Of a stretch of DNA of 11,021 bases, positions 7,915-9,492 are shown piece by piece. This DNA is from a virus. The notes under the pieces are model-generated. The model did not search any database and had not been told where the DNA came from. It saw only the letters and a program-made list of their open reading frames with translations. Where the stretch lies: UHGV virus genome UHGV-0316254; one strand, 5' to 3'. The first letter of the stretch is position 1; every line of letters begins with the position of its first letter. The position numbers were made by a program, and so were the translations under genes.

Positions 7915-8078
7915 TGATGAACATTCGTTTTAGTCCAGAAGTTTACGAGGCGCTCCGTGAAGCCGCCACAATTAAAGGTGTAAGTATTCCGGCCCTGGTT
8001 AACTCCATTGTCAAACACACTATCCTACAAAAAGAGGAAACTGATGAAAGAAAAGAAACGCGTAGTAAAATTCGTTGA
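7914..8078 (+). CDS. Ribbon-helix-helix (Arc/MetJ/CopG-like) DNA-binding protein, 54 aa
   Basis: AAGGAAA Shine-Dalgarno lies 6 nt before the ATG at 7914. Product is MMNIRFSPEVYEALREAATIKGVSIPALVNSIVKHTILQKEETDERKETRSKIR. The N-terminal beta-strand-helix-helix pattern (N-I-R-F-x-x-E-V-x-x-x-L-R-x-A-A...G-x-S-I-x-x-x-V) resembles the Arc repressor fold (from memory). Its 3' end overlaps the ATPase start by about 35 nt. Confidence 0.55.
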   Translation: MMNIRFSPEVYEALREAATIKGVSIPALVNSIVKHTILQKEETDERKETRSKIR

Positions 8079-9492
8079 TGCAATTTGCGGATCTGGAAAA
8101 TCCACCACGTTACAGCACTACATCAAGTCAAGTTTATTAACAAATTCCGAAGCAATTCCCCCTCGTTTTCTTCTCGTGATGCCAACACATGAATTATGTG
8201 GGCAGGTGAGGGAAGAACTAAAAGACAGACGGGTGAAGAGTTTCCATGTGGACACCGAAACAGAAGCGGTAAGACACCTAATTTCCACCTTGGAATACGA
8301 TTTCCAGCATTCGGTTATTATCTGTACACATCAATGTTTCATTCATTACTGCTATCGCGCAGCGCTTGAAACGGAACTTCAAAACCTTCTCCGTAATTTC
8401 AGTATCTTTGTTGATGAAATCCCTGATGCAATGTTTGGCGCTTACATCAAAGTGCAGCATACCAAACGGACGGAACAAAATTTCCCATTCCTGGATTGGC
8501 TGGAAGAGCGGGACGGATTGTTATTCCTGAGTGAGGATAAGCGTGAAGATTTCTACGACTATTGGCACGAAACAGAGGCGAATGGTGCTGAGTTAAAGCG
8601 CCTGCTCTGGGCGATTATGCAGGGTGCTGGACTTCTCTACGAAGAGAATAAACACCTGTTCGCCTTCACTGCTTCACCAATTATCAGATCTGTAGAATGG
8701 GCTGAACAACTCACACTCTTAGGTGCTGGCTCTTCTCGAAGTTTGTTTGTCTGGGCTGCTGAACATCTGACGAAATACGAAGTAGAGAAAGCTGGTGAAG
8801 ATTTACAGCCGCCACTTGAAAGACGTAAACATAAGCGTGTACCGATCTCCCTGGTCGCCGTATGTGAAAACAGATGCACCCTGACAGCATTACAGAAGGT
8901 GTTTCACGAACATCTCCAGGAAATCATCCAGCGCGTGCCTGGTGAATTTATCTTCGCTACCAACAGAGATAAATCCCTGTGTCAGTTTACTACGATAGGG
9001 GATGAAATTCTTACCGATGCTTCCCGTGGTATCCGTGTTTCAATGGCTTCCTATGGCCTGAACCATTACCAGCACATACACAATGCTGTATTTCTCGGAT
9101 GCAGTAATCTTGATAAAGATTTCCAAGGTAAATGGCGGCAGTATGCGGAGCTTAACGGCTGGAATGTTGAAGAATTTGAACAGAAGCAACGCTCCGCGAT
9201 GAATTATGAAAGGTGCTACCAGTTTATTAGCCGTACATCTATCCGTAATGCTGACACTGATCACCCTCTGGTGTTCGTAGTACCGGATCTGGCAACAGCT
9301 GAATACATCAAAGAGCATTATTTCCCTGGAGCAAAGATTGAATGTCTGAAATTTGGGAAAGTGAGAAAGAAAGTTAAAGGTAACAACACCCGTAAAGAAG
9401 TACAGGAACACAAATCCAAAGGATTGACCCAAAGACAAACGGCTGAACTAATGAAGAAAGGGATCGCCACAATACAACGCCACTGGAACTAA
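8044..9492 (+). CDS. SF2 helicase-like P-loop NTPase with C-terminal helix-turn-helix, 482 aa
   Basis: AGAGGAAA Shine-Dalgarno lies 4-5 nt before the ATG at 8044 (the track start 8008 is an upstream TTG). Helicase motifs appear in order: I AICGSGKST (Walker A), Ia PTHELCGQV (compare PTRELAxQ), II FVDEIPD (Walker B-like but non-canonical), III FTASP, V TDASRGIRV, VI-like QFISRTSIRN. The C-terminus GLTQRQTAELMKKGIATIQRHW is HTH-like. Confidence 0.8.
   Translation: MKEKKRVVKFVDAICGSGKSTTLQHYIKSSLLTNSEAIPPRFLLVMPTHELCGQVREELKDRRVKSFHVDTETEAVRHLISTLEYDFQHSVIICTHQCFIHYCYRAALETELQNLLRNFSIFVDEIPDAMFGAYIKVQHTKRTEQNFPFLDWLEERDGLLFLSEDKREDFYDYWHETEANGAELKRLLWAIMQGAGLLYEENKHLFAFTASPIIRSVEWAEQLTLLGAGSSRSLFVWAAEHLTKYEVEKAGEDLQPPLERRKHKRVPISLVAVCENRCTLTALQKVFHEHLQEIIQRVPGEFIFATNRDKSLCQFTTIGDEILTDASRGIRVSMASYGLNHYQHIHNAVFLGCSNLDKDFQGKWRQYAELNGWNVEEFEQKQRSAMNYERCYQFISRTSIRNADTDHPLVFVVPDLATAEYIKEHYFPGAKIECLKFGKVRKKVKGNNTRKEVQEHKSKGLTQRQTAELMKKGIATIQRHWN

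Follow-up and report, generated by a model that had tools for sequence, protein, structure and literature searches.

The question raised by the locus described here is what a helicase-like ATPase with a non-canonical motif II and a basic C-terminal tail does in a small mobile element. The DNA analysed (UHGV virus genome UHGV-0316254, 11,021 nucleotides; hereafter the window) carries a gene for a superfamily 2 (SF2) protein that ends in a helix-turn-helix (HTH), and this gene is a core gene of a phage-satellite-like island of about 13.5 kb. The SF2-HTH protein is probably a replication-initiation helicase of that island, targeted to its origin. This reading is based on three observations: in sister islands the gene is exchanged for genes of O/DnaD-like initiators, relatives of the protein are fused to archaeo-eukaryotic primase (AEP) folds, and a non-coding block is inherited together with the gene.

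The slot of the SF2-HTH gene and the block beside it

The slot was compared at 13 loci that share the island backbone, anchored on the island capsid protein. Five of the 13 carry the SF2-HTH gene. The other eight are without it and encode, in exactly the same slot and 12 nt upstream of an open reading frame named orf94, proteins of 200-277 amino acids. These replacement proteins match PHROGs families described as 'replication initiation protein', 'replication initiation O-like' and 'DnaD-like helicase loader' (phrog_8102, 5e-10; phrog_270, 3.5e-9; phrog_391, 4e-6), and they also match the winged-helix Pfam families HTH_36, DUF6945 and MarR.

The window was then tiled against SF2-type and O-type islands. 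Tiles from 6900-7500 were present in all six SF2-type islands compared and missing from the O-type islands, save for weak matches (73-76%) of tile 6900 in two of them. Positions 6900-9495 form one cassette with sharp borders, composed of a non-coding block of about 600 nt, a sub-cassette with the promoter, the leader, ORF57 and a ribbon-helix-helix (RHH)-like protein, and the SF2 gene; the promoter/ORF57/RHH sub-cassette itself varies among SF2-type islands. An initiator that travels with the non-coding block beside it looks like a replicon, i.e., an origin and its initiator, and the block at 6900-7560 is a candidate cognate origin. The core of the block is nearly invariant. Exceptional conservation of the block as a whole was considered and dropped, as its overall identity of 79-97% is similar to the 87-98% of the SF2 gene. 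It contains the palindromes CCTTAATTAAACTAAGG and ATCATTAAAATGAT, two copies of GGTTCATTGTG, and two 22-nt direct repeats (6992-7013 and 7036-7057). Among complete E. coli genomes, the block was found in a single one, which has the entire island; of 5426 such genomes, only 1 contains the helicase region (window 7400-10700) in full. The possibility that the block is a cos or pac site in common with a helper phage was rejected, blastn against 50,697 phage records having given no match, and an Rfam search over the whole window returned nothing at E <= 0.1.

The third observation concerns the relatives of the protein. An alignment of 23 family members with 32-89% identity (A1) was made, and all statements on the invariance of motifs given below refer to it. 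Fetched proteins that match A1 include 38 of 690-920 amino acids, in which the extra residues lie C-terminal to the SF2 core in all but one. The C-terminal domain of these long forms (L019 9974-12439; P0114-P0215) has the conserved motifs LDxDGGDL, NRYR and SGxDxxK...FYLP and is modelled with an AEP primase fold and, behind it, a helical bundle. In P0107, an AEP-like extension appears, on our reading of its sequence, to stand at the N-terminus instead. The long forms and P0107 are putative helicase-primase fusions with unusual domain orders. One long form, encoded on a 34-kb temperate-phage contig between a DNA methyltransferase and a lysis/terminase module, weakly matches DNA primase and helicase PHROGs. 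A tblastn search of PLSDB for plasmid association gave essentially nothing.

Motor, tail and the DExP family

A coding sequence identical to that of the window is found in E. coli XYEH3934 (NZ_CP110978), where it is labelled 'DEAD/DEAH box helicase' by RefSeq. The preliminary description of the locus had recognised motifs I, Ia, III, V and a VI-like element of SF2 helicases, a motif II that reads DEIP instead of DEAD, DEAH or DExH, and a basic HTH-like tail, and the alignment and the structural model bore these out. Motif Ia follows the pattern P47-T48..L51..Q54, motif Ib is T95-H96, motif II is D124-E125-I126-P127 with D, E and P invariant, and the motif III-like element is G227-A228-G229. 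Downstream of motif VI, a further element, V-P414-D415 (VPD), is also invariant.

The protein carries two tandem RecA-like domains, as expected of an SF2 helicase, and not the single-domain P-loop fold of, for example, a kinase. Its helicase motifs are conserved in A1, and Pfam DEAD (8.5e-6; 26.0 bits, exactly the cut-off) and ResIII (3.3e-5; 24.3 bits against a cut-off of 22.5) match the N-terminal lobe only, at residues 11-125. On the structural side, HsdR, Brr2, DEAD-box proteins and Cas3 were noted. The protein is an SF2-fold ATPase in which K19, D124/E125 and R397/R401 are intact, and ATPase and unwinding activities are predicted for it. No family was returned by an NCBIfam search of the protein and no match by a PDB sequence search with the single protein; a PDB search with the A1 profile recovered only an HTH repeat and fragments around Walker A and motif Ia. 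In PHROGs, it falls over its full length into phrog_2467 (2e-36), a family listed there without a function.

Assignment to the DEAD-box RNA helicases was rejected, as motif II is DEIP, motif III is GAG and not SAT, and no Helicase_C match was obtained at E <= 1. The earlier suggestion of a DNA-targeted translocase or sensor, and not an RNA helicase, stands as far as the DNA-directed context and the exclusion of the DEAD-box proteins are concerned; the generic translocase or sensor has been sharpened to a replication initiator or helicase.

The unusual motif II is not peculiar to the window. The family was found to comprise 74 clusters at 90% identity, with 428 representatives (50% identity) at E <= 1e-10 and 1111 at E <= 1e-3, which places the observation far beyond chance. 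In 218 family proteins aligned to the A1 profile, DEIP, DEVP, DELP or DEAP (DE[IVLA]P) occurs in about 90% of the sequences that cover motif II, and the D and E are kept in every variant listed; motif VI takes the form [YLMF]QxxxRxxxR among the variants listed. Of the phage records, 95 match the family, and T4-like phages that infect Enterobacter, Cronobacter, Citrobacter and Aeromonas make up most of these. One T4-like homologue, at 22% identity, is collinear with the window protein and shares the P-loop, IDEVPD, motif VI and VPD.

Since DExP is family-wide and its D and E are invariant, it is the signature of a large SF2 family and indicates a conserved functional variant, not a decayed Walker B. 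The idea that hydrolysis might be altered or regulated through a divergent Walker B was not supported: the catalytic D and E are invariant and the proline is found in about 90% of the family. The proline stands in for the D or H that normally contacts motif III, and motif III itself is GA[GN] rather than SAT; from this co-variation we infer that the two elements suggest a co-adapted coupling of hydrolysis and movement and no regulatory defect.

It was also observed that a DExP homologue adjoins the long-tail-fibre gene gp34 in T4-like phages (Pseudotevenvirus and relatives, and Aeromonas phages). In Cronobacter phage vB_CsaM_leB, the homologue is gp265 (L023 3803-5230), a 475-aa protein annotated as 'hypothetical' and encoded directly upstream of gp34.

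In the AlphaFold 2 (AF2) model, the tail consists of a low-confidence linker and helices at residues 446-458, 463-470 and 474-481. Homologues of the tail match Pfam HTH_23 or GerE, and the HTH repeat recovered with the A1 profile is a designed HTH repeat protein. Divergence is faster in the tail than in the motor, with 66% versus about 90% identity in close relatives, as is expected of a specificity determinant.

Proposed role, rival explanations and the surrounding island

The following course of events is proposed. After induction, transcription from the strong promoter at 7614 would read through the leader terminator, so that the helicase is expressed along with ORF57 and the RHH-like protein. 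Through its fast-evolving HTH tail, the motor would be tethered to island DNA, with the block at 6900-7560 as the candidate site, and the DNA would be melted or unwound as ATP is hydrolysed in the cleft that separates the RecA domains. Because the short form is without a primase, a primase and a polymerase of the host or helper would be required to copy the excised island. The copies would be packaged into capsids built from the capsid protein of the island.

Several points weigh against the initiator reading. The exchange in the slot is positional equivalence, not sameness of function, and the short form has no primase. The phage homologues are all annotated 'hypothetical', and the activity of the family, like the excision, replication and packaging of the island, is a prediction. 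The window showed neither iterons nor another classic signature of an origin: an iteron search of both strands over 3583-11021 (k = 9-12, at most one mismatch, clustered) revealed no convincing origin repeats, and a general repeat search gave only short repeats in two copies. SF2 enzymes work as monomers or dimers and are not ring helicases. Finally, the T4-like phages that have homologues already own a complete replisome; since they keep a homologue beside it, the family does not always supply the replicative helicase and may also act in recombination or fork processing.

Two rival explanations invoke another use of the motor on DNA. According to the first, which is unlikely, the protein is an HTH-anchored SF2 translocase like Snf2, RapA or Mfd, and serves as a transcription factor or DNA remodeller that turns on or drives the structural operon of the island, or displaces proteins from DNA, instead of initiating replication. 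In the sister islands, however, its replacements are replication initiators or loaders and not transcription factors, relatives are fused to AEP-primase folds, and neither Snf2-specific insertions nor a Pfam SNF2 match were found. According to the second, also improbable, it is a helicase of recombination, repair or fork processing (RecG/UvsW/DinG-like) that does not recognise an origin and assists the excised island, or a phage genome, in recombination-dependent replication or in the resolution of concatemers. The iron-sulphur (Fe-S) cysteines of XPD and DinG are absent from A1, and the specific-looking HTH tail, the exchange with initiators and the co-inherited block better fit targeting to an origin.

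An anti-phage, helper-interference or anti-defence helicase, which might strip or hijack helper-phage DNA, is a still more doubtful explanation. A known anti-phage defence helicase was rejected: PADLOC-DB v2 gave HamB only (E 3e-4, 16.7 bits), and this match, at residues 15-73, spans some 60 residues around Walker A. The protein lacks both a nuclease or effector domain and the kind of partner gene that typifies defence systems, and its gene is a backbone gene in a fixed slot, interchangeable with replication initiators, and not hotspot cargo. That it is a DNA-packaging motor or specificity factor in place of a terminase is very improbable: no TerL, TerS or portal was detected among the island proteins and HTH_23-like domains are known from small terminase subunits, but the identification as a large terminase subunit was rejected on motifs and fold.

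The initiator reading can be extended to a fuller proposal, which is put forward tentatively. In it, the SF2-HTH 'DExP' protein would serve, as an initiator helicase that recognises the origin, a hitherto undescribed family of enterobacterial satellites that have their own lambda-E-type capsid and a phAPEC8-like (Phapecoctavirus) tape-measure homologue, and that swap whole replicon cassettes (origin and initiator) between SF2-type and O/DnaD-type. If true, the protein would be a bacterial counterpart of herpesvirus UL9, and a function would be defined for a family with over 400 protein clusters, which T4-like phages carry as well. A role in replication initiation or unwinding would be given to a widespread and experimentally unstudied family (phrog_2467), whose members span satellites, temperate phages and T4-like phages, and a proline at the fourth position of motif II would be shown to occur in a conserved, presumably active SF2 enzyme. 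The window would also offer a compact candidate replicon cassette of 2.6 kb (6900-9495). Arguably, the island and its swappable replicon cassette are more novel than the helicase itself.

The island extends from thrW to a 404-aa integrase (window 3578-11021; whole element L001 10179-~23800). It begins with small cargo genes, a minus-strand 193-aa tyrosine recombinase and a long non-coding stretch, continues with an operon of ORF57, RHH-like ORF54, the SF2-HTH gene, orf94 and four small open reading frames, and ends with a lambda-gpE-type major capsid protein, a 621-aa tape-measure-like protein and the integrase. This synteny (small recombinase, RHH-like protein, SF2 protein, orf94 and others, capsid, tape-measure-like protein, integrase) recurs in Klebsiella, Enterobacter, Citrobacter, Raoultella, Pantoea and other genera, and also on contigs of about 13 kb that end in tRNA fragments. 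The capsid protein matches Pfam Phage_cap_E (1e-13) and has no BLAST similarity to that of Phapecoctavirus, the phAPEC8-like myoviruses. The tape-measure-like protein shares 41% identity with the tape measure of these phages, over the C-terminal two-thirds of the latter, and relatives of the island add a PhiTE-type adaptor or a Dit-like protein. No replication gene besides that of the SF2 protein was recognisable in the island. The literature searched yielded no description of such a satellite or of any Phapecoctavirus satellite. The island looks like an undescribed phage-satellite family, whose members possibly parasitise large lytic coliphages. As an apparent satellite of such phages, it is relevant to phage therapy, in which phAPEC8-like phages are used, and to gene transfer in Enterobacterales.

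To the left of the island, window 1-3582 is occupied by the right end of a serotype-converting, SfIV-like prophage with a tail gene, gtrIV, gtrB, gtrA and attP; its identity to Shigella phage SfIV is 99.7%. Positions 3532-3577 hold the 3' 46 nt of tRNA-Thr (thrW), from which point the window runs collinear with the island of E. coli XYEH3934. Because of these 46 nt, it was concluded that the prophage and the satellite-like island stand in tandem at one attachment (att) site.

Two Logan contigs of about 13 kb were considered as circular forms and rejected, as L002 (13,144 nt) ends in tRNA fragments and L004 (13,311 nt) has only a 15-nt terminal repeat. Since L002 both begins and ends in tRNA fragments, it represents an integrated island. 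The tRNA ends of L002 and the exact 15-nt direct end repeat of L004 fit assemblies that break at att sites, and the samples possibly contain a mixture of integrated and excised forms.

The coordinates of the features are collected in Table 1.

Table 1. Features of the window around the SF2-HTH gene, with coordinates in the window and strand
Feature	Position	Strand	Remarks
129-aa protein, likely cargo	4347-4736	-	signal-peptide-like N-terminus
YecR-family lipoprotein, likely cargo	4867-5196	-	Pfam 2.8e-23
136-aa protein, likely cargo	5383-5793	+	coiled coil and C-terminal zinc ribbon by eye; weak Pfam Zn_ribbon_9
193-aa tyrosine recombinase	5788-6369	-	consists of the catalytic domain; matches Pfam Phage_integrase over 2-171 of 172 positions
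Non-coding block, candidate origin or cis-regulatory region	6900-7560		co-inherited with SF2 gene
Sigma-70 promoter, near-consensus TTGACA-18-TATTAT	7614-7643	+	11/12 matches; equivalents in divergent islands
Strong intrinsic terminator ahead of operon	7681-7714	+	12-bp stem and T run; about 40 nt past promoter
ORF57, 57 aa	7741-7914	+	first operon ORF; in variable cassette
ORF54, 54 aa	7914-8078	+	ribbon-helix-helix-like by eye; overlaps SF2 start by 35 nt
SF2 'DExP' helicase with C-terminal HTH, 482 aa	8044-9492	+	ATG 8044, stop 9490-9492
Motif I / Walker A, AICGSGKST	8080-8106	+	residues 13-21; invariant in A1; GxGK[ST] in wider family
Motif Ia, MPTHEL	8179-8196	+	residues 46-51; P47, T48, L51 invariant in A1
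Motif II / Walker B, FVDEIPD	8407-8427	+	residues 122-128; D124, E125, P127 invariant in A1
Insertion domain inside RecA1, about 90 aa	8431-8706	+	residues 130-221; motif II to GAG strand
Motif III-like, LLGAG	8716-8730	+	residues 225-229; G227, A228 invariant in A1; GAN/GAG family-wide
Motif V-like in RecA2, RVSMASYGLN	9034-9063	+	residues 331-340; S333, M334, S336, G338, N340 invariant in A1
Motif VI, YQFISRTSIR, arginine pair	9217-9246	+	residues 392-401; Y392, Q393, F394, R397, R401 invariant in A1
Basic linker and three-helix HTH	9346-9486	+	linker ~residues 435-445, HTH 446-481; AF2 helices; homologue HTH matches
orf94, 94 aa	9506-9790	+	14 nt past SF2 gene in window; 12 nt past O-like gene in sister islands

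Ahead of the operon, the layout of a promoter followed by a terminator is kept in the divergent islands L006-L010, though the hairpin sequences differ. The layout recalls lambda PR'-tR' and suggests that the operon is controlled by antitermination or attenuation, possibly in response to a helper phage. ORF54, for which no Pfam or PADLOC match was found, lies upstream of the SF2 gene in all SF2-type islands, with 37-100% identity. The start of the SF2 gene is preceded by a Shine-Dalgarno sequence, GAGG, read 6-9 nt 5' of it. The segment with the promoter, leader, ORF57 and RHH-like gene (7500-8040) was observed to be hypervariable, with the RHH-like protein only 37-49% identical between islands (versus L006-L009) and the flanks 88-98% identical, a pattern that resembles an immunity region. 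On the other side of the SF2 gene, orf94 is retained beside either type of initiator, SF2 or O-like. It has no family match; by eye it looks like a winged helix and could be a partner or loader.

As to the remaining features, the 193-aa recombinase is without N-terminal DNA-binding domains and is kept across the island family beside the 404-aa integrase, and the likely cargo genes at 4347-5793 occur in some islands only. A second non-coding gap (10615-11021; about 670 nt in L001) separates the small early open reading frames from the capsid module. It contains an 18-nt inverted repeat (10754-10771 and 10866-10883, 94% complementary) and is a possible pac/cos site or late promoter region.

Comparison with known systems

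In its proposed logic, the SF2-HTH protein resembles herpesvirus UL9, an origin-opening SF2 motor that binds specific DNA sequences through a C-terminal domain. The fourth position of motif II is non-canonical in UL9 as well. Membership of the UL9 family was rejected, since PF02399 (Herpes_ori_bp) gave no Pfam match at E <= 1 and UL9 proteins were not among the top 50 Foldseek matches in BFVD. The two also differ in that the DNA-binding domain of the window protein is an HTH of 36 residues, whereas that of UL9 is a large C-terminal domain.

With respect to its position and architecture within a satellite, the protein is similar to P4 alpha and SaPI Rep, which combine a motor with a C-terminal origin-binding specificity domain and are encoded in the early operon of the satellite. 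However, P4 alpha and SaPI Rep are ring helicases of SF3, whereas the window protein belongs to SF2 and has no sequence relationship with them.

XPD and DinG (Rad3) were rejected as relatives. The four conserved Fe-S cysteines are absent, the only cysteines between motifs Ia and II being C94, C98 and C103, none of which is invariant, and motif II is DExP and not DEAH. Sequence identity to the window protein is 10-14%, and there is no sequence-level match.

A precedent for replicative SF2 enzymes in enterobacterial elements is provided by RepA of N15 and PY54, experimentally established as an SF2 replicative helicase fused to a primase (PMC4889955), and the window protein would work along similar lines. 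Homology with N15 RepA was rejected: hhalign of A1 against N15 gp37 gave a probability of 1.8%, over only 19 columns around Walker A. Unlike the window protein, RepA has 1324 aa and a DnaG-type primase.

The closest likeness is to a family that was predicted by Kazlauskas et al. 2018 (PMC5862659), who described AEP primases fused to a remote SF2 helicase with its closest homologues in T4-like phages. That helicase family corresponds to pVOG1685 and pVOG9714, and similarity to UL9 was reported for pVOG9714 (PMC5862659); no such similarity was seen for the window protein with Pfam or among the top 50 BFVD fold matches. The shared traits are a remote SF2 helicase, homologues in T4-like phages and AEP-primase fusions among the relatives, and it is by these traits that the likeness was judged. 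In contrast to the Kazlauskas family, the window protein is short, lacks a primase, ends in an HTH and occurs in satellite-like islands; PMC5862659 describes neither the DExP signature nor a role in islands of this kind. It was concluded that the window protein is a short, HTH-tailed variant of a predicted but uncharacterised SF2 family of mobile elements.

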